From positions 783,005 to 847,004 of the forward strand of contig CAWIOS010000012.1 in the NCBI GenBank assembly GCA_963837815.1: DNA of 64,000 bases. The letters run 5' to 3'. The DNA is from Ignavibacteriota bacterium. GTDB taxonomy: Bacteria; Bacteroidota; Ignavibacteria; UBA10030; UBA6906. The notes beneath the pieces were generated by a model, which was not told where the DNA came from, ran no database searches, and saw nothing but the letters and a program-made list of their open reading frames with translations. This document shows, one piece after another, positions 18,086-63,593 of this stretch (within the stretch, counting starts at the first letter, position 1; the number at the start of each line of letters is the position of its first letter). The position numbers and the translations under genes were made by a program.

Positions 18086-18171
18086 GTCCTTCCCTCCGTT
18101 TGCAGTATTAGACAAATATATTGCAGTTTCGGTTTATTTGCAAGAAATTGGAAAAAAGACCGGGATTGCCG

Positions 18172-28062: not shown

Positions 28063-28108
28063 CTATGCTGTCCTTGAACGTGTTTTCGAAGGTATGGATG
28101 CGGAGAGG

Positions 28109-28801: not shown

Positions 28802-28835
28802 GGGGTATCCGGGAACAGAGTGGAGTGACGATCCG

Positions 28836-29858: not shown

Positions 29859-29907
29859 GTAGTATCAACGTTTGAAAGGCAATGCGCGTTCCAGTCCCGG
29901 CGTACCC

Positions 29908-43967: not shown

Positions 43968-46328
43968 TCAGCTCCGGTCCTCCGTGACTTTCCTGAGCTC
44001 CCTGACCATCTCATAGAATTCGGCAAGCGCCATCTCCCGGAGGAATATCATCCCGCGTGCGGCGCGAAGCCTCGGATGCCCGTTCTTCAGGAAGAAGTCC
44101 GTCCCCAGTATCGTCTTGATCATCCCGTACTGGCCGACCTGGATCTTTTGCGCAAGCTCGGAGAACGGACCGTCGTGCTCATAGCTCGGAAAGGATGCCG
44201 CGCTCTGCGAGCCGAAGCAGTTCATGAATGCCGTGTGGAGCATCGTGATGGAGTTGATCGACACCGGGACAAACAGGTTCGCCTCCGCCGGGCGGTACCT
44301 GTACCAGACGTTCCTGTATCCCCACACCCGCAGCGTGGAATCGCCGCTCTCTTTCTCGTAGAGCTTCAACGCCTCGGCCACGGCCTGGAGGGCTTTGTAA
44401 TGCGTGTCGGGCCCGCTCCCTTCCGGGTCGAATGCGACGGAGACGACGTTCGGCCGGACTTTACTGATCAGCTCGAAGATCGGCACGACGTCCCTGTGGA
44501 CTTCGGGTTCCGGCGAGAATATGTCGCCCGTGTAGAAACCGAGCCTCAGCGGATGGATCGCGTACGATTCGATGCCGAAATACGCCCAGAGGAGCTCCAC
44601 CTCCCATTCGCGCGTCATCCCCTTGAGGAGCTGGACCTGCTGCGGGTCCTTGGCGCCGCTGTACTGCGAGCGGCAGTAGCCGATGAGCTCCTGAACACGG
44701 TTGCGCAGCGTGTGGAGGTCATGCGTCTGGTACAGGCCGACGAGATTGCGGAGCAGGCGCCTCGCTTCCGCCTCGTCCTTCATCTCCTGGCTGTTCGCCG
44801 CGGCCCCGTCGAGATAGAGATAGACGTCCTCCATGCGGGAGGCGTTTTCATGCGTGTCGAAGTACCCCTGCACCAGCAGGGCGAAAAGCGTGCCGGTCTC
44901 GAGATGGCTTTCGAGCTTCACGAGGATCGAGAGGAAATACGGGTTCGAGACCGATGTGAAACCGGAGGTCAGGTTGGCGAAATAGTGCTTGTTGCTTGGA
45001 TCGCGGACGAGATGGTAGATGTGCGCGAGGTAGCCGAGCATGATGTCATCGTGATGGGGCTCGGTGTGCAGGAATGTCGTATTCGACACGTGGTCGAGAC
45101 CCTTCTCGATCTTCCCGATGATCCTGTTGCGCGCTTCCGTGGCGAGGTCGACGGGCATCTTCCCGCTCTTGCGCAGCAGCTCGGAGGCAAACCGGTCCCC
45201 CTCGAAATCCTCTTTCGTGAGCTGGACGAGCTGCTTCCCCGATTTCAGGGCGAGCGTCGTCACGACGTCCTCGGAGCGCGCGGGCGTGAGCGTGGTCTCC
45301 CTGCAGAAATCCTCGAACTGCCGCTCCGTAAGGAGGCTCGCGGCACCACGCGTGAGGTAGAACCGGGCATTGGGGAGATCCTGGAGAACGGAGGCGGGAT
45401 ACTGCGGCCCCTTTTCGTTCTCGACGGCGAGCCGGACGATCGCGGCCTTCGCGTCCCCGGCGGCGATAATGATCGCGACGGCCCCGGGGTTGTACGTGAT
45501 CGTCGCAAGCCCGATCGTAATCACAAGCCGCGTCCGGGAAATCTCGATCCCGCCCAGATCCGTGGCGGCGGCCGCCTGCGTCTCGTAGTTGGTGCCCGTC
45601 AGCCGCGTCACCGAATAGACGCTCGACCCCCTCACGTTGAACGCGATGTGTCCGTCCGGCCCGATCCCGCCCAGGAAAAACCCGATACCCCCCATCTCCC
45701 GGACCTTTGTCTCGTATTCCATGCAGAATTCGTCCACCCGGTTGATGACGTCTTTCTGCAGGAGCTCGAGATCCGAGCGGCACTGCCTGACGCGGAGCGA
45801 GAGATCGACGACGCTGCCGGGGAACACCTCGTCCATGGTCTTGCCGGGGGGAAGCCCCAGCGACGTGGCGTTGATGAGCAGGGCCCTGGAGGGGGACATG
45901 CCGAACCCCTTGATGTAGAATTCGTTGACGTACCAGTGGAAGCTGTTATGCTGCGCCGCGTTGATCGGATAGAATTCGTCGATCTGGACGAAGCTGAGCG
46001 ACCTCATGTCCGGCGGCTTCGACCCGTCGATCTCCGCGGCCGCGAGGAGAGACTGGATGTCCTTCGTCTCCCACCGTTCCAGGATGCGCGTCACCCACTT
46101 GATGAAATGCTCGGGTGTCTTTCCGGTGGGGAGCGATATCACCCCGCCGGGATTCCTGATGACCCACTCGATAAACCGGAGCGCGGTGAGCTTCCCGAGC
46201 TGCGGGAAATTCGCAACCTCCACGATTCCGATCTTTTCCGTGGGCGCATACATGGGTTTGCGTCCGCTCCGCTGGAGCTCCATTTCTTCGATCCGGGATG
46301 TCCCGTCATACTGCCTGAGGTTTGCCAT
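43968..46328 (-). CDS. Fusion protein: glucosamine-6-phosphate deaminase/isomerase-like (NagB) domain + LmbE/PIG-L-family N-acetylglucosaminyl deacetylase domain
   Basis: ORF 43968..46406; probable start MANLRQYDG at 46328. N-terminal NagB-like region (…VISLPTGKTPE…FVQIDEFYP…GIGPDGHIAFN…); central LmbE motif FLHTEPHHDDIMLGY (AHPDDE-type). Confidence 0.7.
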   Translation of the reverse strand: MANLRQYDGTSRIEEMELQRSGRKPMYAPTEKIGIVEVANFPQLGKLTALRFIEWVIRNPGGVISLPTGKTPEHFIKWVTRILERWETKDIQSLLAAAEIDGSKPPDMRSLSFVQIDEFYPINAAQHNSFHWYVNEFYIKGFGMSPSRALLINATSLGLPPGKTMDEVFPGSVVDLSLRVRQCRSDLELLQKDVINRVDEFCMEYETKVREMGGIGFFLGGIGPDGHIAFNVRGSSVYSVTRLTGTNYETQAAAATDLGGIEISRTRLVITIGLATITYNPGAVAIIIAAGDAKAAIVRLAVENEKGPQYPASVLQDLPNARFYLTRGAASLLTERQFEDFCRETTLTPARSEDVVTTLALKSGKQLVQLTKEDFEGDRFASELLRKSGKMPVDLATEARNRIIGKIEKGLDHVSNTTFLHTEPHHDDIMLGYLAHIYHLVRDPSNKHYFANLTSGFTSVSNPYFLSILVKLESHLETGTLFALLVQGYFDTHENASRMEDVYLYLDGAAANSQEMKDEAEARRLLRNLVGLYQTHDLHTLRNRVQELIGYCRSQYSGAKDPQQVQLLKGMTREWEVELLWAYFGIESYAIHPLRLGFYTGDIFSPEPEVHRDVVPIFELISKVRPNVVSVAFDPEGSGPDTHYKALQAVAEALKLYEKESGDSTLRVWGYRNVWYRYRPAEANLFVPVSINSITMLHTAFMNCFGSQSAASFPSYEHDGPFSELAQKIQVGQYGMIKTILGTDFFLKNGHPRLRAARGMIFLREMALAEFYEMVRELRKVTEDRS

Positions 46329-46341
46329 AGCGTCCGTCGTG

Positions 46342-48096
46342 TCACTCCTTTGTTGTGAGTTTCCATTCGGCCGGAAGCTCCGAAAGCCACCGGGCAAAGA
46401 ATACATTCGGCACCATGTCGTGCTCGACCCCCGCCGGGGTCATGGACCAGCGCGATCCCGCGGCGGCGACGCTCGCGGCGACGTCAGCGTGCTCCTTCGC
46501 AAGGTGGTCCGTGTACGCGGCCCTGATGATCCCCTTCCCTTTCAGGAGCCAGTCGCGGAAGTACTCGTGCTGCCCGTACAGAGCGTCAAAAAGGAACACG
46601 TGCGTTATCAGGCCGGACATGCCTCCGCGGTCAAGAACGAACCCCGCGGGGCGGTAGCCGCCGCTGTGGGCGGTGACGATCACGCGCGCGACCTCCGTTG
46701 ACGGCACGACGTTCTCTTTCTGCATCGTCGCCATGACGTCTTCCACCATCCTGCGGAAGCCCCCTTCGTCCTCCATCTTCCCGCCGAACGAATCCCTGGC
46801 CCTGTACGGCCCCTGGGGGATCACAAGCAGCGCGTTGATATTCTGCGCGATCATTGACTGGGGGAGAAGGTACTGCTCGAGGACTCCCAGGTCGTCGTTC
46901 ATGTGCCCGTGGAAATGCACAATCACGTTCGCCCCGCCTTTGACCGCATGAAACCCGTCGGGGACGAAGACGACGATGCTGCTGTCGGCATAATGAGGGA
47001 AAAACGGGTAGACCGTCCCGTCTCCCCCCGTGTATCCGTCCTGTCTCGCGGGATGGGGGAAGGGAGCGGCCGCCGAGCGGTAGATTCCCCACTTCCCCCC
47101 CTTGAACGCCGTCCAGTCGACGCCGGACGTGCTGACCGGCCCCCTGTCGTACCCCGTCATCCCGGTGAACTGGTTCCAGACGGCCCGGGCAGCGTATGCG
47201 CCGAGAAGCGTGGCCGCATCCGCGCCGTCGTCCAGATGGTCGGGGGACTTATCGACGTAGATCGCGATCGCGAACTTCACCCTGTCGGTAAGAACAAGAG
47301 CGACGTCGGCTTTGGTTTCGGTGATGCTTCCCGTCTTGTGGGCGACCGCAAACGACGTGCATGCCCACTGCGGGAGAAGCCGCGGGACCATGTCGGCATA
47401 GAACTGGTTCTCCAGTATCCCGATCATCGACGCGCAGGAGGCGGAATCACAGAGGGTGCCCCTGAAGAGTTTTTCCATGAGGAGGGCCATGTCTTCCGGG
47501 GTCGTCACGCCGATTCCGTACCGCATCGCTTCCGGCGTCTCCTGTTTTGTCTCGAGCGTGAAGAGACGGTTGAGTATGCGCGTGTTCTTCAGCCCCCGCG
47601 AGGCGATAAAATCGTTCACGTTCGCCAGCCGCGCCTGATGCGTCCCGGCGAGCCGGTCGAGGACGAGATTCGTCGCCGTGTTGTCGCTCATCGTGATCAT
47701 GAGCGTCACGGCGTCATGCAGCGTGATCACCGCGCCGTCATCCAGGAACTGCAGGACGCCCGATCCGGGTTTCCTGTCTCCGGCGCGGAGCGTGATCCGG
47801 GCCCCGGGATCGATCTCCTTCTTTCTGACCATGTCGAAATACGCCGTCATCACGGGGAGCTTGATCGTGCTCGCGGTCGGGAAACAGTCGGTCGCATTGT
47901 ACGAGACTATTTCCCCCGTGGACAGATTCTTCGCCATCACTCCCATATGCCCGCCGAACCGGGCGTTGAGCGCGCGCAGCTCCGCCATGACGTCCGCGCG
48001 GGCGGGGAGATTTCCCGCAAGAGAGAGGAAACAAAGGAGCGCAAGGGTCCGTTTGCCGGCCGCCGCGGGCCAGCAGCGATCATTCACAGATGCCAT
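46342..48096 (-). CDS. Secreted fusion: class A beta-lactamase-fold serine hydrolase (possible DD-carboxypeptidase) + C-terminal alpha/beta-hydrolase (esterase-like) domain
   Basis: 584 aa; signal peptide; N-terminal domain with S-x-x-K (PTASTIKLPV), SDN (MSDNTATN), KTG (HKTGS) motifs; C-terminal domain with oxyanion-type HFHGH and nucleophile elbow GxSxG (TAHSGGY). Confidence 0.7.
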   Translation of the reverse strand: MASVNDRCWPAAAGKRTLALLCFLSLAGNLPARADVMAELRALNARFGGHMGVMAKNLSTGEIVSYNATDCFPTASTIKLPVMTAYFDMVRKKEIDPGARITLRAGDRKPGSGVLQFLDDGAVITLHDAVTLMITMSDNTATNLVLDRLAGTHQARLANVNDFIASRGLKNTRILNRLFTLETKQETPEAMRYGIGVTTPEDMALLMEKLFRGTLCDSASCASMIGILENQFYADMVPRLLPQWACTSFAVAHKTGSITETKADVALVLTDRVKFAIAIYVDKSPDHLDDGADAATLLGAYAARAVWNQFTGMTGYDRGPVSTSGVDWTAFKGGKWGIYRSAAAPFPHPARQDGYTGGDGTVYPFFPHYADSSIVVFVPDGFHAVKGGANVIVHFHGHMNDDLGVLEQYLLPQSMIAQNINALLVIPQGPYRARDSFGGKMEDEGGFRRMVEDVMATMQKENVVPSTEVARVIVTAHSGGYRPAGFVLDRGGMSGLITHVFLFDALYGQHEYFRDWLLKGKGIIRAAYTDHLAKEHADVAASVAAAGSRWSMTPAGVEHDMVPNVFFARWLSELPAEWKLTTKE

Positions 48097-48114: not shown

Positions 48115-49263
48115 TCACACTTTAATGAACCACTTTCTCTTCCACATCGCCCAGACGACCAGGTACATCACCAGGATGAACGCAATGGCAAACGCTGCCG
48201 AGGCGTTCACCGGACTGAAGTAGGGAACGAAGAGGTTGTCGTAGATAAGGCCTTTCAGCGTCACCGGGTTGCCGTCGGATCCCGTGAACCTGATGAGCGT
48301 CAGGAGGCGCCCGACGATCCCCGAGAGGACGAACACCGCGATCGCGTTCATCCCGTAGATAACGAACGGGCGTGCCCACTTCGTATGCCCCTTCACGTCC
48401 ATCAGCCAGTAAAATACGGAGAAGCACACAAGGGCCCAGCCGGCCATGAACACGACGTACGAGCTCGTCCAGAGATTCTTGTTGATCGGCAGCCAGATAT
48501 CCATGATCGCCCCCGCAAGAAGGAAGAAATTCCCGAAGACGAACATCCATGCCGTCTTCTCTTCGCGCGAATGATTCGAGCGGAGCCAGTGACCCGTGAG
48601 TATACCGAGAAGCGTCGTCGCAATCGCGGGGACCGTGCTGAGTATTCCTTCGGGATCAAATCCGGGAGCAGGCGCACCACTCCAGGTATGTCCTGCAAGC
48701 AGGTGTGAATCAATGTACCAGGGGAGACAGCCGGTCGGCTGGAGGACGCCTGGGCCGAAGCCGGGGACGGGGATGAGCATCACCGCGGCCCAGTACGAGG
48801 CCAGGAGCCCCACGACCCACCAGACCTGCGCCTTCCACCCCGTGTAGAGGAATATCGTGCTCGCCGCAAGATAACAGACCGCAATCCTCTGGAGGACGCC
48901 GGGTATGCGCATCGTCGAGAGTGAAAAGTTGCCGACAATCAGGCCGAACGGGAACCCGTTCAGGAACGTCCCCAGCGCGAATATGATCACGGCCCTGCGG
49001 AGGACGTGAAGGAGGAGCTTCCCGCTGTCCTCGCCCCGGTCCTTCCTCTTCTGGAAGGAGAGCGTCATGGCGACGCCGACGATCCAGAGAAAGAACGGGA
49101 ATATCCAGTCGGTGAACGTCCACCCGTTCCACCGTGCATGCTCGAGCTGCGGGTAGATAAAGTTCCAGGAACCGGGATTGTTGACAAGTATCATGCCGGC
49201 AATCGTGGCGCCGCGAAATGCGTCGAGTGAACCGAGGCGGGAGGAGGAATCCGTGGTGGTCAT
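48115..49263 (-). CDS. nagX: Polytopic membrane protein of the DUF1624/DUF5009 HGSNAT-like family (NagX-like, amino-sugar uptake/acyl transfer)
   Basis: 382 aa, about 10 TM; conserved N-terminal RLxSLDxFRGxTIxxMILVN motif (RLGSLDAFRGATIAGMILVNNPG) characteristic of this family. Confidence 0.65.
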   Translation of the reverse strand: MTTTDSSSRLGSLDAFRGATIAGMILVNNPGSWNFIYPQLEHARWNGWTFTDWIFPFFLWIVGVAMTLSFQKRKDRGEDSGKLLLHVLRRAVIIFALGTFLNGFPFGLIVGNFSLSTMRIPGVLQRIAVCYLAASTIFLYTGWKAQVWWVVGLLASYWAAVMLIPVPGFGPGVLQPTGCLPWYIDSHLLAGHTWSGAPAPGFDPEGILSTVPAIATTLLGILTGHWLRSNHSREEKTAWMFVFGNFFLLAGAIMDIWLPINKNLWTSSYVVFMAGWALVCFSVFYWLMDVKGHTKWARPFVIYGMNAIAVFVLSGIVGRLLTLIRFTGSDGNPVTLKGLIYDNLFVPYFSPVNASAAFAIAFILVMYLVVWAMWKRKWFIKV

Positions 49264-49305: not shown

Positions 49306-49400
49306 CGCCTGCGGCGGGATGCAAAAAGCGCTCCCCGCCTGTGGCGGGATGCAAAAAGCGCTCCCCGCCTGTGGCGGGATGCAAAAAGCGCACATTGATT
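49306..49400. repeat. Tandem array of three 30-bp direct repeats (ggcgggatgcaaaaagcgctccccgcctgt), each an imperfect palindrome/hairpin; third copy degenerate
   Basis: Visible at 49313-49342, 49343-49372, 49373-49395 (plus a partial leader copy from 49306). Each unit has arms ggcggga / tccccgcc around an A5-containing loop. Lies 5 nt downstream of the epimerase stop and about 40 nt upstream of the nagX start on the minus strand. Confidence 0.8.
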
Positions 49401-50539
49401 CATAGTTTGGTGATGCCGAGGCCGGGGCCGTCGGTCAGCGTGACCTTCCCGTCGACGATCGCGGCTCCTTTGAAGAGGTCGTTGCTTATCAGGAGAGCGC
49501 CGTCCAGGTCCGCATAATCCGCCAGCGGTGAAAGCTGCGCCGCGGCGGAGATCGCGCACGAGGTCTCCGTCATGCACCCGATCATCACCTTCATGCCGAG
49601 CGCCCGGGCGGCCGCGATCATCTTGTACGCTTCGTGCATGCCGGTGGATTTCATCAGCTTGATGTTGATGCCGTCGAATACGCCGATCGCGTTCTTGATG
49701 TCCGACATCCGGACGACGCTCTCGTCCCCGATGAGGGGGAGCGGGCTGCGCGACCGGAGCCAGGCGATATCATCCGGTTGCTCTTTCGGCATCGGCTGCT
49801 CCACGAACTCCACCCCCTTCGTCGCGAGCCATTCGATCTCCTTCAGGGCGGCTTCCCTGTCCTTCCATCCCTGGTTCACGTCCACGCGGATCGGCTTGTC
49901 CGTCACCTCCCGTATCGTCTCGATCATCTCCTTGTCATTCGCGAGTCCCATCTTGACTTTGAGGACCCTGTATATTTCCGCCTCCTTCACCTTCTGCCTC
50001 ACCACATCCGGCTTGTCGATCCCGATCGTGAACGTCGTGACGGGGGCTTTCGACGGGTCGAGCCCCCAGATCCTGTACCACGGGCATCCCATCTTCTTCC
50101 CTATCCAGTCGTGGAGCGCGATGTCAACGGCGGCTTTCGCGGCATTGTTCCCGGGCGCGATCGCGTCAACATCGCGGAGTATGTCTTCGAGACGGAACGG
50201 GTCGGCGTATTTTGCCATGTCCACCTTCGAAAGAAACGCTGTCGCGCTCGCGTGGCTCTCGCCGAGATAGGGGGGCATCGAGGCCTCACCGTACCCGACG
50301 ATCCCGTCCTGTTCGACCTCCACCATCATGACGGGGGTCGTGCTGCGCGAATACGTGGCCACCGTGAAGACGTGTTTCAGTTCGAGCGTGTAGGGATAGA
50401 ATCTGAGTTTCATGGGATTCCCCGTTGTTGATCCCGTGACGGCGCTTCGACCGAGCGACAAGAGAGCGCTCCGGCCGAGCGCGAGCGACGCCCCTGCGAG
50501 GGCCGACCGTTTGAGAAATGTCCGTCTGTCAGTGTTCAT
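49400..50539 (-). CDS. L-Ala-D/L-Glu dipeptide epimerase (enolase superfamily, MLE subgroup; YkfB/YcjG-like) with Tat-type signal
   Basis: ORF 49400..50578; start MNTDRRTFLKRSALAGASLALG (twin-Arg) at 50539. Enolase-superfamily KxK motif (LKVKMG), metal ligands (DVNQGW…E…D). Paired with NlpC/P60 endopeptidase gene upstream. Confidence 0.75.
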   Translation of the reverse strand: MNTDRRTFLKRSALAGASLALGRSALLSLGRSAVTGSTTGNPMKLRFYPYTLELKHVFTVATYSRSTTPVMMVEVEQDGIVGYGEASMPPYLGESHASATAFLSKVDMAKYADPFRLEDILRDVDAIAPGNNAAKAAVDIALHDWIGKKMGCPWYRIWGLDPSKAPVTTFTIGIDKPDVVRQKVKEAEIYRVLKVKMGLANDKEMIETIREVTDKPIRVDVNQGWKDREAALKEIEWLATKGVEFVEQPMPKEQPDDIAWLRSRSPLPLIGDESVVRMSDIKNAIGVFDGINIKLMKSTGMHEAYKMIAAARALGMKVMIGCMTETSCAISAAAQLSPLADYADLDGALLISNDLFKGAAIVDGKVTLTDGPGLGITKL

Positions 50540-51770
50540 AGCCGCCGTAGTACGGGAGTGATGCAAGCCGGCGGACACCCGAGGATTCCCGGGCGCCGAT
50601 GATCCTGCGTGCCCTTATGAAATTCACCGAACGGAAATCGCTGTAGTCTGAATCGGCCGGGTCCAGGCTGTTAAAATGGACGTCGGCGGACGAATGGATG
50701 AAACGCTTTCCCCCGAGCGAGATGGCAACGTGCGTTATCCTCTCCGGCTTCTCACCCGAGGCGCGAGCCCCGAAAAACATGAGGTCGCCCGGTTCCAGGT
50801 TCATGTTCCCCCCGGGAACGTCCACGGGGTCCCCCACGGCAGCCTGCTGGTCGGCGTCCCGCGGAAGAAGGACACCGTTGAGAGCATAGACCGTCTTCGT
50901 GAATCCCGAGCAGTCCATCCCCTTCGCGGAGGTCCCCCCCCAGAGGTAGGGGACGCCGAAGAACCGTTTCGCCGTTGCGACGATCCGTTCCGGTGTATCC
51001 TTCGCCCGGGCAAGCCATGTCTCACACGGTTCAGACTGGTCCCTCCCGATGAAACCCGCGCGGCCGTCCGGATATTCCACCTCGTACAACGAGCCGGAGA
51101 TCCCCCGGAAGCCAAGGAGCGAACCCGCCACGACATCGCTCACGGGCTGAGAGGATTTCTCATTCGTGGAGCGGACCCAGGCGAATTCGGCGGTGACGAT
51201 GAGTTTCGGCATCCGCGCCCAGGCGTCGTACCGGTCGTTCGCCATACAGACAATCCTGTCATCGGTCCATCCCAGGTATTCATCCGGCGTCTGGACGAGA
51301 TACCATCCGTCGTTCTTTTTCAGAATCTTCACAGGCGTGCCAAGCAGAGCCTGGGATGCCAGTTCGGCCGGGTGCATCGGTTTGCTCCGGAGGTTGGCAA
51401 CGCTCACGTTGATGACGCCGAGTGTCTTTTCCCCCACAGACGGTCCGGGGAGGGAAATGATGCTATCGATGATTGCATAGCCCCCTTTCCCGCGGAGGAA
51501 CCCGAGGAGCCGTTCGTGCATCTGCGCGTCCTGTATTTCGCCCGTCAGTGTCAGCGTCATGCCGGACACCGTTCCATGCACGTCAAACACCGCCGTGCGG
51601 TGGTCGGGGGCGAGGTTCTCCCGTGCTTCATTCAGGAGTGCGTTTGCCATCGGGGAGTCCGTTGTCCGTGTGCACGCCGCGACGAGAGACACACATGCCG
51701 CAGCCAGGAGGATCCGCCATTGGGTCCGCGGATGCGGAATGATGACGACCGATGTGCGCGCGCGGGTCAC
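50529..51770 (-). CDS. NlpC/P60-family gamma-D-glutamyl-(L)-diamino-acid endopeptidase with SH3b domains (YkfC-like)
   Basis: 413 aa; lipoprotein-like N-terminus (…LLAAACVSLVAAC); NlpC/P60 catalytic motif FGVPYLWGGTSAKGMDCSGF plus His (ITHVAISLG). Confidence 0.8.
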   Translation of the reverse strand: MTRARTSVVIIPHPRTQWRILLAAACVSLVAACTRTTDSPMANALLNEARENLAPDHRTAVFDVHGTVSGMTLTLTGEIQDAQMHERLLGFLRGKGGYAIIDSIISLPGPSVGEKTLGVINVSVANLRSKPMHPAELASQALLGTPVKILKKNDGWYLVQTPDEYLGWTDDRIVCMANDRYDAWARMPKLIVTAEFAWVRSTNEKSSQPVSDVVAGSLLGFRGISGSLYEVEYPDGRAGFIGRDQSEPCETWLARAKDTPERIVATAKRFFGVPYLWGGTSAKGMDCSGFTKTVYALNGVLLPRDADQQAAVGDPVDVPGGNMNLEPGDLMFFGARASGEKPERITHVAISLGGKRFIHSSADVHFNSLDPADSDYSDFRSVNFIRARRIIGARESSGVRRLASLPYYGGYEH

Positions 51771-54149
51771 TTATTTGATGAGGAGCATTTTTTTCGTCAT
51801 TGTAAACGCGGCGGCGGTCATTCGCACGATGTACATGCCGCTCGCCCGGTTTGACCCGTTCCACGGGACGGCGTACCTCCCGGGGGCCTGCACACCGTCG
51901 ACAAGCCGCTCCACCTCCTGGCCGAGCATGTCGTACACGATTATCGTCACCCTGCCCGACACAGGGAGCTGATAGCCGATCGTTGTCGAGGGGTTGAACG
52001 GGTTCGGATAATTCTGATCCAGCCCGAACGTCGACGGGACTCCGGGCGGGGTTTCCACGCCCGTGACCTGCACGGTGCGGAACTTGTACACCGGAGACCA
52101 TGCGCTCGTCCCGATAGAGTTGGTCGCCCGGACCCTCCAGAAATAGATCGTGAAATACTCGAGCGGGGGAGCACCCAGCGCCGTGTCGGCGACGCCGGCC
52201 GAGTCCATGACGGGAGAGGCGAAATCCGCGCTCTTTCCGATCTGCAGACGGTACGATACGGGGCCGGTCGAGAGGGCCGGACTCCACCGGAGCGACAGGA
52301 ACACAGGGAGGTCGGGCTGCATGTTCGCCGGATACAAGAGAGACGGCGTCGCCGGGAAACCTGTCCGGAAATTCGACGCCGCGGACCAGGAGCTTGTCCC
52401 CCCGCCACTTGAAGCCCGCACACGCCAGTAATACAATGCCTGCCCCTGGAACCCCTTTACGAGCCGGAACGTGTCCGTAAGGGCCGACTCATTCCAGACC
52501 AGGCCCGACGCAAACGCCGGGTCCGTCCCGACCTGAAGCTGGTAGCCCGATGCAAGGAGCGATGAACGCCATGTGACGCTCAGGCTTTCGGCCACGTCGG
52601 ACGTGCCGCTCAGGGGCGCAGAGAGAAGCGGAGCGGGAGGAGCTGAGAGTATTATGATGTTGCTCGTGTCGCTCTCGACATAGTTCCGGCTGAGGGCTGT
52701 GACGAGATAGTACCAGGGTCCACCCGGGGACGGGGGAGCCGGAGGGACGAAATATCTATTTCCTTCGACGGAGAGTATGTTCAGCGGGTTCGCAAGCTCG
52801 GACGCCGCCGGGCGGTGGTCAAAACGATACACGACATACCGGTACGCGGTATCGCCGTTCGGCGAGACAATGGGAAGGTCCCACTGGATCGCGGCGGGAG
52901 CCACGCCGGGAAGCGCCGCGTAACGGATGCCGCGTGGCATATAGGGAGGGGTCATATCCTTCCACGGCATCGGCGCGATGAGCGCCGGGTACGCGTACAC
53001 GCTGTTCCGGAGTGTGTCGGCGATCCCGCCCAGGTTCCCCGAAGTAATATCGTTCGTCGTGAACTGAATGTTCCCCTGCGTGTTCACGTCGGCCCTTGAG
53101 AACCGGATCTGTTGTGCGATCTGGGAGGCGTCACCGAACGAGCTCGTCCCAATCCTGTACGTCGCAAGCCCCGGGTACGAGTGCCGCCCGTGCGCCGCCA
53201 CCGAGTCGGACCACCAGGGCTCGAGTGTCGCGTAGTCCTGCGGCCCGCCGAACTTCCAGTAGAGCTGCTGGGCCAGGTAGTCGACATACTGGCCGTCGAG
53301 CCAGGCCATAGGGTCGCAGTAGATAACGGAGTAGTTGTCGTTTCCGCTCGTGTTCGGGGGCATACCGTCCTTCCAAATACCCGCAGGGCTCATGCCGAAC
53401 TTCACCCAGGGTTTAATCGCCTTTATGCTGTCGTAAATCGCCTGAAGGAGTATATTGACGTTGTCGCGCCGCCAGTCACCCCTGTCGGAAATTCCGCGCC
53501 AGTTGAGGCCGTAGGAGGAATCGTCCTGGTGCGCGGTGATCCCCTCGGCGTAGAAATAGTCGTCCATATGTATCCCGTCAACGTCGTAGCGGCGGGTCAC
53601 ATCGAGTAGGACGCTGGTGACGTACGCCCTGACATCCGGCAGCCCCGGGTCGAGCATCTCGAGGTTTCCGATCGTGAGTATCCACCCGGGATGCCGGACC
53701 GAGACATGCATGGAGCTAATGGGATATGCCCCGATGGAATTGACCGCCCTGTAGGGATTGAACCACGCGTGCAGCTCCATCCCCCTCTTGTGAGCCTCAT
53801 CGACGGCAAACTGGAGCGGGTCGAACGGGGACTGGGGAGGGGTCCCCTGCGACCCGGTCAGCCAGTATGACCAGGGCTCGATCGAGGACTGATAGAAGGC
53901 GTCGCACTCCGGGCGCACCTGAAATATCACCGCATTGAACCCCTCCGCGCGGAGGCTGTTGAGTATCGATACCAGCGAGTCCTTCTGCCTCTGGACCGGA
54001 CCGCCAAGAACCGGGGGCCAGTCGGTGGCCCCCACAGTCGTGAGCCAGACGCCCCGGAACTCATGCTTCGGCAAGACCTGGGAAGTGCAGGTCAGTACCA
54101 CCGACAGGAGGAGTGCGCCGACGGCCAACGGCAGATGAAGAGGTTTCAT
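51771..54149 (-). CDS. T9SS-secreted GHL10 (glycoside-hydrolase-like family 10 / YngK-type TIM barrel) protein with FN3-like repeats and Por-secretion C-terminal domain
   Basis: ORF 51771..54200; start MKPLHLPLAVGALLLSVVLTCTS at 54149. GHL10 N-terminal motif EFRGVWLTTVGATDWP…NAVIFQVRP…HAWFNPYR; middle FN3-like repeats; C-terminal …DQNYPNPFNPSTTIGYQL…VYDMLGQEVERLVDG…GMYIVRMTAAAFTMTKKMLLIK type-A CTD. Confidence 0.7.
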   Translation of the reverse strand: MKPLHLPLAVGALLLSVVLTCTSQVLPKHEFRGVWLTTVGATDWPPVLGGPVQRQKDSLVSILNSLRAEGFNAVIFQVRPECDAFYQSSIEPWSYWLTGSQGTPPQSPFDPLQFAVDEAHKRGMELHAWFNPYRAVNSIGAYPISSMHVSVRHPGWILTIGNLEMLDPGLPDVRAYVTSVLLDVTRRYDVDGIHMDDYFYAEGITAHQDDSSYGLNWRGISDRGDWRRDNVNILLQAIYDSIKAIKPWVKFGMSPAGIWKDGMPPNTSGNDNYSVIYCDPMAWLDGQYVDYLAQQLYWKFGGPQDYATLEPWWSDSVAAHGRHSYPGLATYRIGTSSFGDASQIAQQIRFSRADVNTQGNIQFTTNDITSGNLGGIADTLRNSVYAYPALIAPMPWKDMTPPYMPRGIRYAALPGVAPAAIQWDLPIVSPNGDTAYRYVVYRFDHRPAASELANPLNILSVEGNRYFVPPAPPSPGGPWYYLVTALSRNYVESDTSNIIILSAPPAPLLSAPLSGTSDVAESLSVTWRSSLLASGYQLQVGTDPAFASGLVWNESALTDTFRLVKGFQGQALYYWRVRASSGGGTSSWSAASNFRTGFPATPSLLYPANMQPDLPVFLSLRWSPALSTGPVSYRLQIGKSADFASPVMDSAGVADTALGAPPLEYFTIYFWRVRATNSIGTSAWSPVYKFRTVQVTGVETPPGVPSTFGLDQNYPNPFNPSTTIGYQLPVSGRVTIIVYDMLGQEVERLVDGVQAPGRYAVPWNGSNRASGMYIVRMTAAAFTMTKKMLLIK

Positions 54150-54223
54150 AGGAAATGATGGTTCCGATTGACGCGCGGCGGATTTCAAGGATCCCGGCAC
54201 ACTGGAATCTACTGAATTTCCCG

Positions 54224-54263
54224 AATAAATGAAAAGGCATCCCGCACATTTGCGCGGGATGCC
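54224..54263 (-). terminator. Putative rho-independent terminator (10-bp GC stem ggcatcccgc/gcgggatgcc, 8-nt loop, followed on minus strand by TTTTCATTTATT)
   Basis: Perfect inverted repeat at 54236-54263; on the transcribed (minus) strand it is followed by a T-rich tract; located 43 nt downstream of the stop of gene 54306..55769. Confidence 0.55.
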
Positions 54264-54305
54264 CTCTCAATCCTCAACCCCCGGTCAGCAAGGGGGGGCG
54301 AATAG

Positions 54306-55769
54306 CTACTTCAACAGCATCATCTTCTTCGTGATCCGGGCGTCGCCCGATGTGAACGTGTAGAGGTACGTCCCTGAGGCAAGGTTCGTGCCGTCAAGTT
54401 TCGCCGTGAACGTCCCGGGATTCATGTTCTGGTTGACGAGAGTCGCCACCACCCTCCCGATAACGTCATAGACCTTGAGCGTCGTCATACCGGCCTTCGC
54501 AACCTTGAACTCGATTTCCGTCGAGGGGTTGAAAGGGTTCGGGTAGTTCTGCTGCAACGCATAGCCTGAGGGAACGTTGTTGTTCACGACGCTGATGCTC
54601 GTGACAGTGCGCGTGTACATACGGAGCGAAGGATTCCCGTGTCCGGTGAGACCGAACACTCCGACGTAGGCCGTGTCGCCGCCCGGGCTGAATGCAATCG
54701 CACGGGGGCGTTCGTTCGCATCATTGGCGATGAAGAATGTCCACTTGATGCTGTCCCTCACCGCGCAGTTGCCGGTGGTGTCGATGGCATACCACGTTCC
54801 GGGGGTGTAATATGTCGTAAGACCGGGCCAGTCGTTCGGCACGTCGTTATACGAACCGCAGCTCGCCCAGAGGTATGCATTCGTTCCGCTCTTCTTCTTG
54901 TTCCAGCCGATCGACTCGCAGTGGAATCCCTTCAGGATCGTGTCAATGCGCGTATAGAACGAGCCGAGAAGCCCGGCCGGCGAACGATAGCGATAGATGG
55001 CACGGTCCGTGTAGCCGGGGAAATAGATGTCATTACCGTCCTTGGAGACTTCGACGGCCCGGCAGTACGAGTTCGGATCGAGCGTATCAACGGCATTCTC
55101 ATTGAACGTCAGGTCCGGGTTGAACACCGCCAGGGGGGCGGCGCCGGAGGCAACCTTTGTCGCATACACGTAGCCATTGGCGTCGACACCGACGGACACC
55201 GTCGATGCGCCCGCGGTGTTTTCGAGACCCTTCGCCATCCCCGCACCGGTCTTGTAGTTGATCCGGTAGAAGATATTGAACATCGATGCGATGATATTGC
55301 CGTCCTGGTCACAGCGGAGTCCGCGACCCGAGTTCGGGCTGCTCGACGGATTCCAGAGCCAGGGACCGCCGGTATACGCCTGCAGAGAAGCGCCGCCGAT
55401 CGTGTCCTGTTTCCCGTTGACCGTCAGGAACTTTATCGGCGAGAATGACACCTGCGTGCCGTCCGGATTGTACACGCGGATCACGCGCACAGCAACCTCT
55501 TGCTGCGTGATGCTGTCCGTGATCGTCTTTCCGTCCCCGATACGCGCGCCGTAGTTCTTGACAAGTATCGTATCCTCGGGATACGCATAATAGCTCAGGA
55601 CCCAGATCTTCCCGTCAGGGTCAACCGCCAACCCGTGTACCCCGTAGTGAATCGTGTCTCCCGCAACCTTACCCGCCGGGGGAAATATCCCCCGATCCTG
55701 CCACTGACCGAAGGCTGTAACAGCGGCGAGTATGGAGAGCAGGATGACTGCTGTAACTGTTTTCTTCAT
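54306..55769 (-). CDS. T9SS-secreted beta-propeller protein of unknown function
   Basis: ORF 54306..55868; start MKKTVTAVILLSILAAVTAFGQ at 55769 (AGGAG RBS). C-terminal …QNYPNPFNPSTEIEFKV…VYDVIGRVVATLVN…GTYLYTFTSGDARITKKMMLLK type-A CTD. Confidence 0.65.
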   Translation of the reverse strand: MKKTVTAVILLSILAAVTAFGQWQDRGIFPPAGKVAGDTIHYGVHGLAVDPDGKIWVLSYYAYPEDTILVKNYGARIGDGKTITDSITQQEVAVRVIRVYNPDGTQVSFSPIKFLTVNGKQDTIGGASLQAYTGGPWLWNPSSSPNSGRGLRCDQDGNIIASMFNIFYRINYKTGAGMAKGLENTAGASTVSVGVDANGYVYATKVASGAAPLAVFNPDLTFNENAVDTLDPNSYCRAVEVSKDGNDIYFPGYTDRAIYRYRSPAGLLGSFYTRIDTILKGFHCESIGWNKKKSGTNAYLWASCGSYNDVPNDWPGLTTYYTPGTWYAIDTTGNCAVRDSIKWTFFIANDANERPRAIAFSPGGDTAYVGVFGLTGHGNPSLRMYTRTVTSISVVNNNVPSGYALQQNYPNPFNPSTEIEFKVAKAGMTTLKVYDVIGRVVATLVNQNMNPGTFTAKLDGTNLASGTYLYTFTSGDARITKKMMLLK

Positions 55770-55854: not shown

Positions 55855-57081
55855 CTACCGCAAACCATAATACGGAGCGCTCAGTTTCAGCGTGTTTATC
55901 ACGAGCATCTCGTGAGTGGTCGTCGTCCCGAGGAGCGAGACGTACAGGTTCGGTCCCTTCCCCCAGGCAAACGCAGCCGGCATCGGGGTGAGCGTGCCCG
56001 GATAGAGCGGCTGGCTCGAGCCCCCCGGATGGACAACGACAACTCCCTCGGGTGCATCCGTCCCGATGTACAGGTCGCCGTCGGAGGAGAACGTAATGCA
56101 CTGGACGCCCGGCCCGTTCGGTGTGTACAATCCAGAAAAATCGAAGTATTTCGAGGCGGGGCCGAGACTGTCGGATGAGACGATGGGAAATTGCCAGACA
56201 CTTTCAACCGAGTCGGTTTTCGCGCCAACATAGAGCGACCCGTTGTAGACACGGAACGAGCGGCATGTTGCGACGAACGGGAATGCCGTGACAATGCCGG
56301 CGGGCGTCACGCTGTATATGGCATTGTTTGCGCCCCCGGCCCATATGGTGCCGTTCGCATCGAAATCGAAGTCCACGATCTTGACTCCCCCCGGAAAGAG
56401 AACCCAGATCGCCGCTGCTCCCCCGCCGGCAGGGATCTTGTAAATGACCTGGAGGTTCCGCGCGGCATACAGGACGCCCCCGGGACCCATCTTCAATCCG
56501 GTCCACTTGGTAACGCCCGGAGTCGTCGAGTACGCCGCCGACTGCCTCGTGCCGTCGGGCGCGATCTTCCAGGTGCCGAGCCCGGTCCCGGATGCAGTCG
56601 ACACGAGCGAGACGTAGACGTTGCCGGCGGTGTCGCAGGCAATGCCATTGGGGTCTTCCCCGCTCTTCTGCACGCTGAAACCGGCCGCCGCGGACTTGAG
56701 GCTGTACACGACATAGTTGCTGAAGGCCTCGGCGCCCTGGACGGCCACAGTCACGAGCAGGGAGTCCTGCACGACCAGGGGAGCCCGTACGGTAAGTGTC
56801 GTCGCGGAGGCGGTGAGTATGGCAGCGGGGGTCGTGCCGAAATAGACGAGATCGTTGGCAACCACCGGCGAGAAATTCGTCCCCTTTATCGTAATTACCG
56901 TCACGCCCGAAAAGGCGGTATTGGGCGGCAGGGCGGGATTGTCCGCAGTGAGTGACGTGATCGTGGGAGTGGGAAGGCTCTGCCAGTTGGGATCAAAGAG
57001 GCTCGGTTCGGGCTTCTTCGCACAACCGGAAAACGCGCCCACCAGCGCCGCCAGGCCAAGGATGAATACGGAATGTTTCAT
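55855..57081 (-). CDS. Lipoprotein with IPT/TIG-like domain and NHL/beta-propeller-like repeats (unknown function)
   Basis: 408 aa; lipobox FSGC; IPT-like segment (SGVTVITIKGTNFSPVVANDLVYFG); repeated blade-like motifs (GNVYVS, GVLYAA, GTIWAG, GSLYVG, GDLYIG). Confidence 0.55.
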   Translation of the reverse strand: MKHSVFILGLAALVGAFSGCAKKPEPSLFDPNWQSLPTPTITSLTADNPALPPNTAFSGVTVITIKGTNFSPVVANDLVYFGTTPAAILTASATTLTVRAPLVVQDSLLVTVAVQGAEAFSNYVVYSLKSAAAGFSVQKSGEDPNGIACDTAGNVYVSLVSTASGTGLGTWKIAPDGTRQSAAYSTTPGVTKWTGLKMGPGGVLYAARNLQVIYKIPAGGGAAAIWVLFPGGVKIVDFDFDANGTIWAGGANNAIYSVTPAGIVTAFPFVATCRSFRVYNGSLYVGAKTDSVESVWQFPIVSSDSLGPASKYFDFSGLYTPNGPGVQCITFSSDGDLYIGTDAPEGVVVVHPGGSSQPLYPGTLTPMPAAFAWGKGPNLYVSLLGTTTTHEMLVINTLKLSAPYYGLR

Positions 57082-58158: not shown

Positions 58159-60264
58159 TTAGCGAATGACGGCAAGTTTCTTTATCGCCCGCTCGCCGGT
58201 CTTCATGTTCTCAAACACCACGATATAGACGCCGCTCACAACGACCTGCCCTGACGAGGTGTTGGAATTCCAGTACTCGTCGCCGCTCCCGTTTGTGTGG
58301 AGGATCTCCTTGATCAGCTCTCCCACCTCGGTGTAGATCCGGATCCTGCACTGCCCCGGAATGTTGAAAAACGCGATCCTGTCACCAACCGTCGCCCCGA
58401 ACCGGAGGGTCGCAATGTCGGAAGCGATGCTGAAGGGATTCGGAACAATGCGGATGCTTGAAAGCGGAGTCTCCACGGACGCCCTGAGGAGATTCACCTT
58501 GTCATACGTCTGCGCCATAAGCCTGTTGCTCGTGAGGAGGGCTCCGGCGGGGGTCGAACCGGTGGGGTCGCTTGTGACAGCGGAGCCAACGCTCAACAGG
58601 TAGTAATAGTAATCGAACCCCCTGGAGAGTGCCGTGTCTTTGTAGCTCCTTTCCGCGGCACCCACGGTTGCGACGAGTGAATATGTGCCGTCAGAGCGGT
58701 CACGCGCACGGTAGATCTGGAATCCTTTCAGCAGCGGATCTCCGGGGTAGACGTCCCAGCTCAGGTTCACCCCGTCCCCGGCGGACTGGGCGGTGAACGT
58801 CTTCGGGGGAAGGGGGGGCTGCGGAATATTATATCCGGAGTTGTAGTTCGCGAGCGCCCTCCGGAATGTCTGGAAAAGCGAGTCTCTCCCGGTAAGGACG
58901 GAGTCATTTTTGGCCTTCGTTCCAGCGGCAACCGTCGCGGGCACACCTGAAGACACAGCCGCCTTGAACGCGTGCCCGACAGAGAGGCATGCCGTGCGGC
59001 TGAGACCGGAGGCACCCTCGGCGCAGACGATATGGATGCTCTGCCCCGGTCCGAGCGTGTACGGGCCGTACCCGTCGGCGTTTGTGAATCCGCCGGTCGT
59101 ACCGAGCGACGGGTCACCGGTGGGCACGTCGAAGGCCCCGTCAGGCTGCACTTTGTCCGCGTGACGCGGCGACGCGTGGCCCGATGACATCACGGCGTAC
59201 TCTGCCGCCATATACGGGACATTGAACTGGCTGTTATTCGACGTCGGAGGATTCAGCTTTTCGTCGGAGCCGAAATATGTCGTCGTCGAAGGCTGTGACG
59301 GATCGTCCGTGGTGTCGGTCGCCGATTTGTCGGCGTGAAGCGTCTCGGTCCCGATGAACTGGGCGGCCGCCAGGCGTCCGACCGTATCGGCGGGATCATC
59401 TGCGGGAAGGGCGGGGGTGAACATCGGCGCCCCGATATTGCTGTACGCGGTAAATGTGGGAAACAATCCCTGCCAGGTGTAGCGGCAGCGGAATTGCTGT
59501 CCCGCGGGGTCGGGCTTCACGCCGTCTCCCCGCGCATCATTCATCGAGTTAATCCCCCACGACGTCGGATTGCCGATTTCCTGGCTCCCGTCGTACGTGC
59601 AGGCATACCGTGACTGTATGAATATGCGGAGGCCGTTGAGCGTCTGGCCTGCAAGCGGAGCGGCGGTCGTACCGTCGATCTGACCGGTATTCGTGAACGT
59701 GTATTCGTAAATAAAGTAGTTGTCGTTGTACGTCTGGCACCAGGCGAGGATTTTCCGCGTCATTGTGACGCCGATGGCGGTATTGTCCGTGTTGATTATC
59801 ATCCGGTCGCATTTCAATGTCGGATCGGTTGTCGAGCTCGAAAGCGGCGCTCCTCCTACCGAAACGACACCGTCTGCATACACGGTGGGGGGATCAAACC
59901 GGTTTATCGTCTTGAACGTGACAGGGAAGAACTCGCCGAGACCGTTGACGCGCGGTCCGACGTGGACCACCTTCTGCAGCCACGTCGTTCCGGTCTGGTC
60001 CGTCCAGTTCGTCACGCCGATCCAGAGGCCCGACGCCGCTTCCATGTCCTGGTATTTGTAGTACGCGGGCCACTGGAGGCCGTCCTGCTGCACGGAGACC
60101 CGTCCTTCCTCGATCTCATGACCCGTAGAGGCAAACCAGTGGTTCAGCGAACCGACCGCCATCCACCGTATCTCAACCTGCGCCCGCGCGGGCACGGCCA
60201 ATGCAAGAAGGGCCGCAAGGGAGAAGGCGACCCCGGAATGTGCATACTGACGATGACGCATCAT
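58159..60264 (-). CDS. T9SS-secreted protein of unknown function (cell-surface, adjacent to TonB-dependent receptor)
   Basis: ORF 58159..60480; start MMRHRQYAHSGVAFSLAALLALAVPARAQ at 60264 (GAGGAAA RBS). C-terminal about 95 aa (…IVPNPFSIASDIATLRF…GVYIVVFENMKTGERAIKKLAVIR) resembles a variant T9SS CTD. Confidence 0.6.
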   Translation of the reverse strand: MMRHRQYAHSGVAFSLAALLALAVPARAQVEIRWMAVGSLNHWFASTGHEIEEGRVSVQQDGLQWPAYYKYQDMEAASGLWIGVTNWTDQTGTTWLQKVVHVGPRVNGLGEFFPVTFKTINRFDPPTVYADGVVSVGGAPLSSSTTDPTLKCDRMIINTDNTAIGVTMTRKILAWCQTYNDNYFIYEYTFTNTGQIDGTTAAPLAGQTLNGLRIFIQSRYACTYDGSQEIGNPTSWGINSMNDARGDGVKPDPAGQQFRCRYTWQGLFPTFTAYSNIGAPMFTPALPADDPADTVGRLAAAQFIGTETLHADKSATDTTDDPSQPSTTTYFGSDEKLNPPTSNNSQFNVPYMAAEYAVMSSGHASPRHADKVQPDGAFDVPTGDPSLGTTGGFTNADGYGPYTLGPGQSIHIVCAEGASGLSRTACLSVGHAFKAAVSSGVPATVAAGTKAKNDSVLTGRDSLFQTFRRALANYNSGYNIPQPPLPPKTFTAQSAGDGVNLSWDVYPGDPLLKGFQIYRARDRSDGTYSLVATVGAAERSYKDTALSRGFDYYYYLLSVGSAVTSDPTGSTPAGALLTSNRLMAQTYDKVNLLRASVETPLSSIRIVPNPFSIASDIATLRFGATVGDRIAFFNIPGQCRIRIYTEVGELIKEILHTNGSGDEYWNSNTSSGQVVVSGVYIVVFENMKTGERAIKKLAVIR

Positions 60265-60295
60265 GAGTTTCCTCGTTAAGGGTTGAAACAGGCTC

Positions 60296-63406: not shown

Positions 63407-63593
63407 GTCAAGCTCCTGGATGATGCGTACGGGATAGCAAAAACTCATAGACAGAGGAAAGAAGAGATAAGAAGGATAGCAATAGGCGCGGCCGTCAAAG
63501 AGAGGTGAGCCATTGCGGCCAAACCAGTGTAGGGGAATGTATGAAACAGCGATTGGAGTGTCAAGTGGTGCAACTAAATATCCTTCTCCCCAA

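Follow-up and report, generated by a model that had tools for sequence, protein, structure and literature searches.

We analysed a 64,000-nucleotide stretch of the Ignavibacteriota contig CAWIOS010000012.1 (the window, numbered from its first letter), in which all genes from about 26965 to 63448 lie on the minus strand and the majority are murein-related. One of them encodes a protein of the GHL10 family (Pfam PF02638, formerly DUF187; COG1649/UPF0748). Its open reading frame (ORF) on the minus strand runs from an ATG at 54149 to a stop codon at 51771 and encodes 792 aa. The alternative longest start is a GTG at 54200; a public 1.2-Mb contig encodes the same 792-aa product with the same start and 100% identity (P0121). 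The original prediction, made from the sequence alone, had described a GHL10 TIM barrel with FN3 repeats and a type IX secretion system (T9SS) C-terminal domain (CTD), and had proposed a muramidase or glucosaminidase role from its position in a murein-focused locus. The domain description was borne out by Pfam, NCBIfam, AlphaFold2 and Foldseek. The murein focus was also recovered, with two Amidase_3 proteins, an NlpC/P60 protein, beta-lactamase-fold proteins, a GH3 NagZ fusion and a SpoIID protein in the locus.

The PF02638 profile matched aa 30-337 with E=1.4e-64 and 218.6 bits (gathering threshold 27.9), covering profile positions 1-303 of 311. FN3/Ig-like Pfam families matched in two stretches (Ig_Rha78A_N 41.1 bits, Pur_ac_phosph_N 31.8 and fn3 25.7). 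At the C-terminus, Por_Secre_tail (PF18962) matched aa 714-788 with 28.9 bits (cut-off 27), and the T9SS type-A sorting domain of NCBIfam, TIGR04183, reached 37 bits against a cut-off of 23, the sorting domain spanning aa 714-789. The AlphaFold2 model, for which 33 homologues were used as input (mean pLDDT 83.4, pTM 0.71), consisted of five parts: the TIM barrel (about aa 30-370), a beta-sandwich, two FN3-like sandwiches and the CTD sandwich (715-790, pLDDT about 85). When the model was searched with Foldseek, FN3 arrays were matched, and two of the three beta-sandwiches were FN3-like.

Kinship to peptidoglycan glycan cleavers

The sole match among all PDB sequences was Cwp19 of Clostridioides difficile (E=9.5e-85), with the entire barrel covered. 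A structural comparison of the predicted TIM barrel, suggested with the original prediction, pointed to the same protein: the (beta/alpha)8 barrel of the model was superposable on Cwp19, the sole solved member of the family, with a target TM-score of 0.90 in Foldseek, and the next-closest fold was a poly-N-acetylglucosamine (PNAG) hydrolase. DigH of Escherichia coli (YddW; the RefSeq gene name for yddW is now digH, 'divisome localized glycosyl hydrolase') shared 37% identity with the query over 366 aa (E=1e-74, BLASTP). In a three-way alignment, identities were 41.8% between the query and Cwp19, 37.4% between the query and DigH, and 48.0% between Cwp19 and DigH. The HMM searches assigned the protein to no characterised non-murein glycoside hydrolase (GH) family. 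By sequence, the catalytic domain is closely homologous to two experimentally shown peptidoglycan glycan cleavers.

Cwp19 degrades peptidoglycan to 1,6-anhydromuropeptides, which is a lytic transglycosylase activity, with muramidase-type side products that have reducing ends with unsubstituted N-acetylmuramic acid (MurNAc), and it leads to autolysis in C. difficile (PMC6016235). Its activity on peptidoglycan is slow, an order of magnitude below lysozyme, and starch, pullulan and cellobiose were not attacked, nor were the other carbohydrates tested (PMC5765458). DigH is described, in later papers that cite Yakhnina & Bernhardt (2020), as a denuded-glycan-specific hydrolase that acts on peptide-free strands at the septum (PMC12288456; PMC13174416). 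The family had been taken in the original prediction to have no established substrate. The work on Cwp19 (PMC6016235) and DigH (PMC12288456) has established that the two best-studied GHL10 enzymes cut peptidoglycan glycan, and the guess at function is not new. The proposed muramidase or glucosaminidase role gained support from homology, active-site conservation and conserved context, but lost its novelty, since the activity was already known for the family. In principle little is added to the enzymology, because backbone cutting by GHL10 has been known since Cwp19 (2017-18) and DigH (2020). The novelty appears to lie in the setting: a large subfamily of T9SS-secreted proteins within a conserved locus that looks dedicated to peptidoglycan import and catabolism.

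Crystal structures of Cwp19 (5OQ2/5OQ3) define a putative active site formed by W36, Q77, W127, R132, D195, D196, Y197, S250, Q295, Y297, G328, F367 and S368 (PMC5765458). Twelve of these 13 residues are identical in the query (in the same order W35, Q77, W129, R134, D196, D197, Y198, S254, Q295, Y297, G327 and F363), and S368 is replaced by threonine (T364). The twelve are invariant across the alignment of the query, Cwp19 and DigH, and most of the mapped residues are invariant or at least 90% conserved among 33 full-length homologues. Asp195, Asp196 and Tyr197 of Cwp19, which fall in the DDYFY motif, were proposed to be catalytic or to stabilise an oxazolinium (PMC5765458). In the query, the Asp-Asp pair closes beta-4, and Gly327 stands at the usual position of the beta-7 nucleophile. 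We take this combination of an Asp-Asp pair and a missing beta-7 nucleophile to resemble GH18, GH20, GH84 and family-1 lytic transglycosylases, in which catalysis is assisted by the substrate, a 2-acetamido sugar. By analogy, such a mechanism could yield either hydrolysis or a 1,6-anhydro ring.

The protein begins with a signal peptide followed by glutamine (predicted cleavage before Gln23). This pattern is kept in about 31 of the 33 homologues and fits the 'Q-rule' of exported Bacteroidota proteins. A canonical lipobox was not found in the protein, whose only cysteine is preceded by threonine, not by glycine, alanine or serine. The protein combines a Sec signal peptide with a CTD above the curated cut-off, as a T9SS type-A cargo does. 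Instead of the architecture of a DigH-like periplasm-facing lipoprotein, it has the signal peptide with glutamine, three extra beta-sandwiches and the T9SS CTD.

More than 7,900 database proteins matched the GHL10 protein at E<=1e-10. Among the best 120 of them, nearly all are proteins of 780-800 aa with GHL10, FN3-like domains and a CTD, with identities down to about 45-48%, and the named sources are metagenome-assembled genomes (MAGs) that bear the labels Bacteroidota, Ignavibacteriae/Ignavibacteriales or KSB1. In the databases, homologues go by 'family 10 glycosylhydrolase' or 'uncharacterized lipoprotein YddW (UPF0748)'. The first name wrongly suggests a GH10 xylanase; a GH10 match with catalytic glutamates on beta-4 and beta-7 was not found in the query. 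The second predates the work on DigH and wrongly implies a lipoprotein, which misfits the secreted subfamily. Public names thus hide a large secreted GHL10 subfamily, in which thousands of metagenomic homologues have one and the same five-part architecture.

Gene neighbourhood and its conservation

The features of the locus are collected in Table 1. Window scans against Pfam covered ORFs of at least 200 aa.

Table 1. Features of the GHL10 locus in window coordinates
Position	Strand	Feature	Remark
60296..63448	-	TonB-dependent receptor, CarboxypepD_reg + Plug	weak, partial SusC/RagA match
58159..60480	-	conserved protein of ~700-770 aa (773 aa in the window), Fn3-like domain	follows receptor; kept in L002, L004, L005, L006
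57123..58175	-	PorV/PorQ-family outer-membrane beta-barrel, T9SS-associated	NF033709 196.7 bits, cut-off 90
55855..57081	-	lipoprotein, TIG domain + NHL/PknD-type propeller	conserved member of upstream block
54306..55769	-	487-aa T9SS cargo, 7-bladed beta-propeller + CTD	directly upstream of GHL10 in every related locus sampled
54230..54269	-	strong terminator-like hairpin with T-run and 18-bp stem (10 GC pairs)	between T9SS propeller gene and GHL10
51771..54149	-	GHL10 gene	signal peptide aa 1-22, barrel ~28-372, beta-sandwich ~400-500, FN3-like 505-596 and 600-692, T9SS type-A CTD 714-792
53553..53567	-	DDYFY motif D196-D197-Y198-F199-Y200	end of beta-4; Cwp19 Asp195/Asp196/Tyr197; invariant in 33 homologues
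50529..51770	-	YkfC-type NlpC/P60 + SH3b lipoprotein, gamma-D-Glu-diamino-acid endopeptidase type	
49400..50578	-	MR_MLE enzyme, L-Ala-D/L-Glu epimerase-like or N-acetyl-D-Glu racemase-like	twin-arginine signal; last before hairpins
48115..49263	-	NagX-like transmembrane glucosamine N-acetyltransferase	
46342..48096	-	class-A-beta-lactamase-fold protein, 584 aa	C-terminal ~270 aa without domain assignment
43968..46406	-	812-aa protein, glucosamine-6-phosphate deaminase-like (NagB-like) core at aa ~220-430	~600 further residues without assignment
42910..43833	-	PD40 protein	
40379..42913	-	T9SS-secreted N-acetylmuramoyl-L-alanine amidase, Amidase_3 + CarboxypepD_reg + Big_5 + CTD	
39435..40373	-	BadF/BadG-fold sugar kinase, NagK (SO_3507)-like	
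36492..39431	-	NagZ fusion lipoprotein, 979 aa	both GH3 domains + PBP4B/AmpH-like beta-lactamase-fold domain
35141..36490	-	SpoIID/LytB-domain protein, 164.8 bits	second candidate strand cleaver
33263..35056	-	AMIN + Amidase_3 periplasmic amidase (AmiC type)	
31412..32689	-	AmpG-family muropeptide permease of the major facilitator superfamily	
18121..19407	+	NamZ exo-beta-N-acetylmuramidase, signal peptide	PF07075 E=4e-84, PF20732 E=8e-35; 32 kb from GHL10

The hairpin upstream of GHL10 suggests that this gene is the first of a separate transcription unit. The NlpC/P60 gene begins, with a GTG, at the nucleotide next to the GHL10 stop codon. Two identical terminator-like units (TCCCGCCACAGGCGGGG AGCGCTTTTT), 30 nt apart, are located at 49333-49379 (minus strand) between the epimerase and nagX-like genes. 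With a hairpin upstream, no gap between GHL10 and the YkfC-type endopeptidase gene, and hairpins after the epimerase gene, these three genes have the appearance of a single transcription unit.

Only peptides whose N-terminal L-Ala is free, as after release by an amidase, suit YkfC-type enzymes (PMC2954226). The epimerase carries the twin-arginine signal MNTDRRTFLKRSALAGASLALG, and relatives carry DRRSFLQ, DRRTFLK and TRKDFFK in this place. It was located in four related loci (L004:13660-14784, L087:8645-9784, L002:15567-16697 and L006:15543-16673, the last two on the minus strand). YcjG and YkfB are cytoplasmic. A periplasmic murein-dipeptide epimerase exported by the twin-arginine translocation (Tat) pathway, as the motif predicts here, would be unusual.

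Four proteins end in T9SS CTD-like tails: GHL10, the 487-aa propeller, the second amidase and the 773-aa protein. The TIG protein, the NlpC/P60 protein and the NagZ fusion have lipoboxes, and signal peptides were found in NamZ, the AMIN-amidase, the PD40 protein and the beta-lactamase-fold protein. AmpG and NagX are predicted to reside in the inner membrane, and NagK and the NagB-like protein have no export signal. The SpoIID/LytB protein shows no obvious signal peptide or transmembrane segment at the listed ATG (MTAEPTITVGILTAS...), so that either the start is wrong or the localisation is unusual. The NagZ fusion joins a sugar exo-hydrolase to a probable DD-peptidase in one chain. The ORFs for the NagB-like and beta-lactamase-fold proteins overlap by 65 nt as listed, and both are kept in L004 and L087.

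Upstream of GHL10, the TonB-dependent receptor scored 65 bits against TIGR04056 (SusC/RagA), for which the cut-off is 368. Neither Pfam nor NCBIfam gave a SusD match in the protein that follows it, and the pair is not a canonical SusC/SusD locus. That 773-aa protein has an Fn3-like domain as its sole sequence match, and its C-terminus is weakly PorZ-CTD-like. Its gene overlaps the downstream PorV/PorQ-family gene by 17 nt. A cargo gene with a PorP/SprF/PorV-like gene after it recalls the cargo-specific T9SS adaptor pairs in Flavobacterium. For the TIG lipoprotein, NHL/PknD-type propeller repeats were the only PDB sequence matches. The 487-aa protein was modelled with a pLDDT of 82, and its best fold matches were a glycan-sensing propeller of a Bacteroides hybrid two-component system, Vgb lyase and YncE. 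It is a probable surface binding protein, and the conserved partners (the propeller, TIG and 773-aa proteins) resemble binding or scaffold proteins.

Candidate glycan cleavers in the window are GHL10, which is predicted to be secreted and endo-acting, the SpoIID/LytB protein, and the exo-acting pair of NagZ and NamZ. NamZ had been overlooked in the original prediction, in which GHL10 was the only backbone cutter besides SpoIID. The 487-aa T9SS protein was considered as a second backbone cleaver and was ruled out by its model, a generic 7-bladed propeller with no glycosidase fold. A small lysozyme gene in a gap of the cluster was also considered. From 26965 to 63448 the minus strand is filled by adjoining ORFs of 200 aa or more, and the only gap above about 160 nt measures about 570 nt (32690-33262), so there is little room for such a gene, the Pfam scan having covered ORFs from that length upwards. 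No GH18, GH19 or GH20 chitinolytic enzyme was present among the window ORFs scanned.

To compare related loci, we collected 80 loci, about half of which were unrelated T9SS cargo (CTD motif N[YF]PNPFNP) and were removed for want of a match to the catalytic domain, and 24 window proteins were searched against all fetched loci in a tblastn matrix. The gene order of the window was repeated in L087, where GHL10 is 85% identical, and in L004, where it is 52% identical; the cluster is conserved at about 50% identity. In the Ignavibacteriales-type loci L002, L005 and L006, the receptor, the approximately 700-aa protein, the outer-membrane barrel, the TIG protein and the T9SS propeller are followed by GHL10, and downstream of it lie a Golvesin_C/fn3 protein, the epimerase, the NagB-like protein and a MurQ-like SIS protein. 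In the KSB1 locus L003, GHL10 is still accompanied by the TIG protein and the propeller. Full linkage was confined to the subfamily of the query, and a partial version was found in a Neomarinimicrobiota MAG (L008). Independent pairings of GHL10 were found with AmpG (Rhodothermales L016), NagX (Hymenobacter L011 and L042), the epimerase (Mucilaginibacter L035) and Amidase_3 (Clostridia MAG L046). Links to peptidoglycan genes were not detected at actinobacterial, cyanobacterial and enterobacterial GHL10 loci.

A second GHL10 paralogue, about 29-30% identical to the query and fused to Big_5 and a CTD, was found in KSB1 (L003:3702-6794) and Neomarinimicrobiota (L008:~1441-4470). The same Big_5 and CTD scaffold bears Amidase_3 in the T9SS-secreted amidase of the window (40379-42913). 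This suggests that a shared T9SS scaffold has exchanged its catalytic heads.

Several further genes were noted. After ampG, the minus strand at 26965-31401 encodes a family 2 glycosyltransferase (GT2, 497 aa), a DUF4922 protein, an Asp/Glu racemase, which could take part in the handling of murein D-Glu, and a weakly GH43-like lipoprotein; the GT2 gene adjoins the cluster in L002 too. A DUF3160 lipoprotein (19424-21613, plus strand, E=1e-173) starts 16 nt after the NamZ gene, and this pairing hints at a role of DUF3160 in processing murein sugars or peptides. Elsewhere in the window are two methyl-accepting chemotaxis proteins (443-2332, minus, and 2304-4937, plus), an MsrA-MsrB fusion (6843-8000, minus), a 945-aa FAD-oxidase/4Fe-4S/CCG fusion (15007-17844, minus) and a class A penicillin-binding protein (23522-25858, minus).

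A proposed peptidoglycan-foraging system and its alternatives

We think it probable that the GHL10 protein is a Sec-exported, T9SS-secreted, endo-acting cleaver of peptidoglycan strands, of the same catalytic kind as Cwp19 and DigH, which acts after an amidase in a peptidoglycan-foraging locus. In the proposed order of events, the secreted Amidase_3 would strip the stem peptides off foreign or dead-cell peptidoglycan outside the cell. The GHL10 barrel would then cut the peptide-poor strands of alternating N-acetylglucosamine (GlcNAc) and MurNAc, (GlcNAc-MurNAc)n, most likely at the MurNAc-beta1,4-GlcNAc bond, by a single-acid, substrate-assisted mechanism at D196-D197-Y198 that may leave reducing or 1,6-anhydro-MurNAc ends. 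The FN3-like domains may keep the enzyme attached to its insoluble substrate or set it at a distance from the cell surface. Oligosaccharides and peptides would be imported by the adjacent TonB-dependent receptor. In the periplasm, NagZ would act with NamZ on the sugars and finish off the glycan fragments, and the YkfC-type endopeptidase and the Tat-exported epimerase would act on the peptides. Passage of the products through the inner membrane would fall to AmpG and NagX, and their entry into catabolism to NagK and NagB.

GHL10 is placed after the amidase because the YkfC-type enzyme needs amidase-released peptides, and the denuded strand, the substrate of DigH, is the sugar product of that same step. 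The secreted Amidase_3 in the cluster and the apparent co-transcription with the YkfC-type gene are circumstantial evidence for a preference for denuded strands.

Several points weigh against this reading. The query sits slightly outside the pair formed by Cwp19 and DigH, which share 48% identity, more than the query has with either (42% with Cwp19 and 37% with DigH). The authors of the Cwp19 structure did not themselves settle on a catalytic mechanism for GHL10 (PMC5765458), and DigH is described as having 'either glucosaminidase or muramidase activity' (PMC12288456). In the one dissenting report, DogH of Deinococcus, which is annotated as GHL10, is said to release maltose from starch, and the family may be functionally mixed (PMC9967864). 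NagX, NagK and NagB would be equally suited to the catabolism of chitin or other GlcNAc sources. The KSB1 locus L003, which keeps the upstream partners, lacks a peptidase block within 10 kb. The scans for terminators and promoters gave no more than consensus matches, and we infer peptidoglycan cleavage by the GHL10 protein and its T9SS subfamily from homology and gene context.

The alternative that survives best, although we consider it improbable, is that the enzyme acts on a different glycan, such as a chitin- or chitosan-like polymer, PNAG, an exopolysaccharide or an alpha-glucan, and that its neighbours serve general amino-sugar scavenging. FN3-like modules are frequent in chitinases, the PNAG hydrolase is the closest fold after Cwp19, NagX, NagK and NagB are generic genes of the GlcNAc pathway, and the slow action of Cwp19 on peptidoglycan (PMC5765458) and the reported starch activity of DogH (PMC9967864) would also agree with this idea. 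DogH was given less weight as evidence for a starch substrate because it shares only about 21% identity with Cwp19 (PMC9967864), as against 42% for the query, which keeps the mapped active-site residues with the exception of S368; with Cwp19 itself, starch, pullulan and cellobiose gave no activity, nor did the other sugars tested (PMC5765458). Moreover, the genes in one apparent unit with GHL10 (YkfC type and epimerase) are specific to murein peptides, the cluster holds NamZ, AmpG, two MurNAc-L-Ala amidases and SpoIID, which are MurNAc- or peptidoglycan-specific, and no GH18, GH19 or GH20 was found among the window ORFs scanned.

If the protein served housekeeping, it would trim the denuded septal strands of its own cell in the periplasm, as DigH does, together with the AMIN-amidase and the SpoIID-like protein, and the locus would be one of recycling. 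The 37% identity to DigH, the presence of the AmiC-type AMIN Amidase_3 protein, SpoIID, AmpG and a class A penicillin-binding protein within one window, and the periplasmic transit of T9SS cargo are all compatible with such a role. We nevertheless give it little probability: the T9SS CTD, found throughout the subfamily, directs the protein across the outer membrane and away from its own wall, the second amidase is also T9SS cargo, and GHL10 is fixed beside a TonB receptor, a PorV/PorQ-family protein and secreted propellers, although the recycling of a cell's own fragments needs no importer.

That the secreted GHL10 protein and amidase mainly lyse living neighbours, with nutrition secondary, is likewise scarcely probable: both the glycan cleaver and the amidase are predicted to be exported by the T9SS and Cwp19 causes autolysis of C. 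difficile (PMC6016235), but the outer membrane shields the peptidoglycan of living Gram-negatives, no immunity gene or toxin-like partner was recognised in the locus, the tight coupling to import and catabolic genes is expected of a nutritional system, and only the ecological role would differ from foraging, the enzymology being the same.

More tentatively than the assignment of the enzyme itself, we propose that peptidoglycan foraging is carried out by a previously undescribed T9SS-coupled system that resembles a polysaccharide utilisation locus (PUL), is conserved among bacteria of the Ignavibacteria type and their uncultured relatives in the Fibrobacteres-Chlorobi-Bacteroidetes (FCB) group, and has GHL10 as its endo-glycanase. 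Its outer parts might be the TonB receptor, the PorV/PorQ-family protein, two propeller binders, the secreted amidase and the secreted GHL10 protein; its inner parts might be the periplasmic NagZ fusion, NamZ, the YkfC-type endopeptidase and the Tat-exported epimerase, followed by AmpG, NagX, NagK and NagB. In the literature searched, which included few subscription journals, no description of a T9SS-GHL10 subfamily or of a peptidoglycan utilisation locus was found, and this argues only weakly that none exists.

Peptidoglycan is a major pool of carbon and nitrogen in bacterial necromass, and its extracellular depolymerases in the environment are poorly defined. The cluster is a concrete, testable candidate for extracellular peptidoglycan breakdown in Ignavibacteria-type bacteria. 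If the proposal is true, the foraging system lets these organisms live on bacterial necromass and, by extension, GHL10 proteins may supply the muramidase and lytic transglycosylase activities by which Tannerella and other Bacteroidota scavenge exogenous peptidoglycan. The query should also be a tractable, soluble, extracellular GHL10 protein with which the bond cleaved, and the choice between hydrolysis and lytic transglycosylation, could be settled.

Comparison with known systems

The query resembles Cwp19 over the whole barrel (41-42% identity), and they share the DDYFY motif, the Arg of an NPYR motif and the beta-7 Gly. Both proteins are exported and have C-terminal modules that place them on the cell surface. 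Three CWB2 repeats, however, tether Cwp19 to a Gram-positive wall, and it acts on the wall of its own producer, in stationary-phase autolysis and toxin release, whereas the query has FN3-like modules and a T9SS CTD, belongs to a diderm host and is encoded in a locus for import and catabolism.

With DigH, the query shares the GHL10 domain and, as proposed, its place in the order of events, since DigH acts after amidases on peptide-free strands. DigH is a 439-aa outer-membrane lipoprotein that faces the periplasm and lacks extra domains; it is brought to the division site and broken down by Prc-NlpI. The digH gene is flanked by the unrelated genes gadC and dosC, in contrast to the query, which is predicted to be secreted and is clustered with peptidoglycan-catabolic genes.

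Tannerella forsythia is a member of the Bacteroidota that grows on foreign peptidoglycan by means of amidase, muramidase and lytic transglycosylase activities and AmpG, with a scavenging set of AmpG, MurK, MurQ and NamZ (PMC7670621). Two 'family 10 glycosylhydrolase' (GHL10) proteins are part of the proteome of its vesicles (PMC10682907). An equivalent cluster of a TonB receptor, T9SS cargo and GHL10 was not found for T. forsythia in the literature searched, in which respect it differs from the present locus.

PULs of Bacteroidota and their T9SS-dependent use of chitin or cellulose offer a further comparison. As in those systems, an endo-enzyme, surface binders, a TonB importer, periplasmic exo-enzymes and a permease are co-encoded. 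The window locus differs in that no SusD homologue was found with Pfam or NCBIfam and the receptor is weakly SusC-like. It differs also in the proposed substrate, a glycopeptide, hence the peptidases and the epimerase in the locus. The window locus is PUL-like in logic only.

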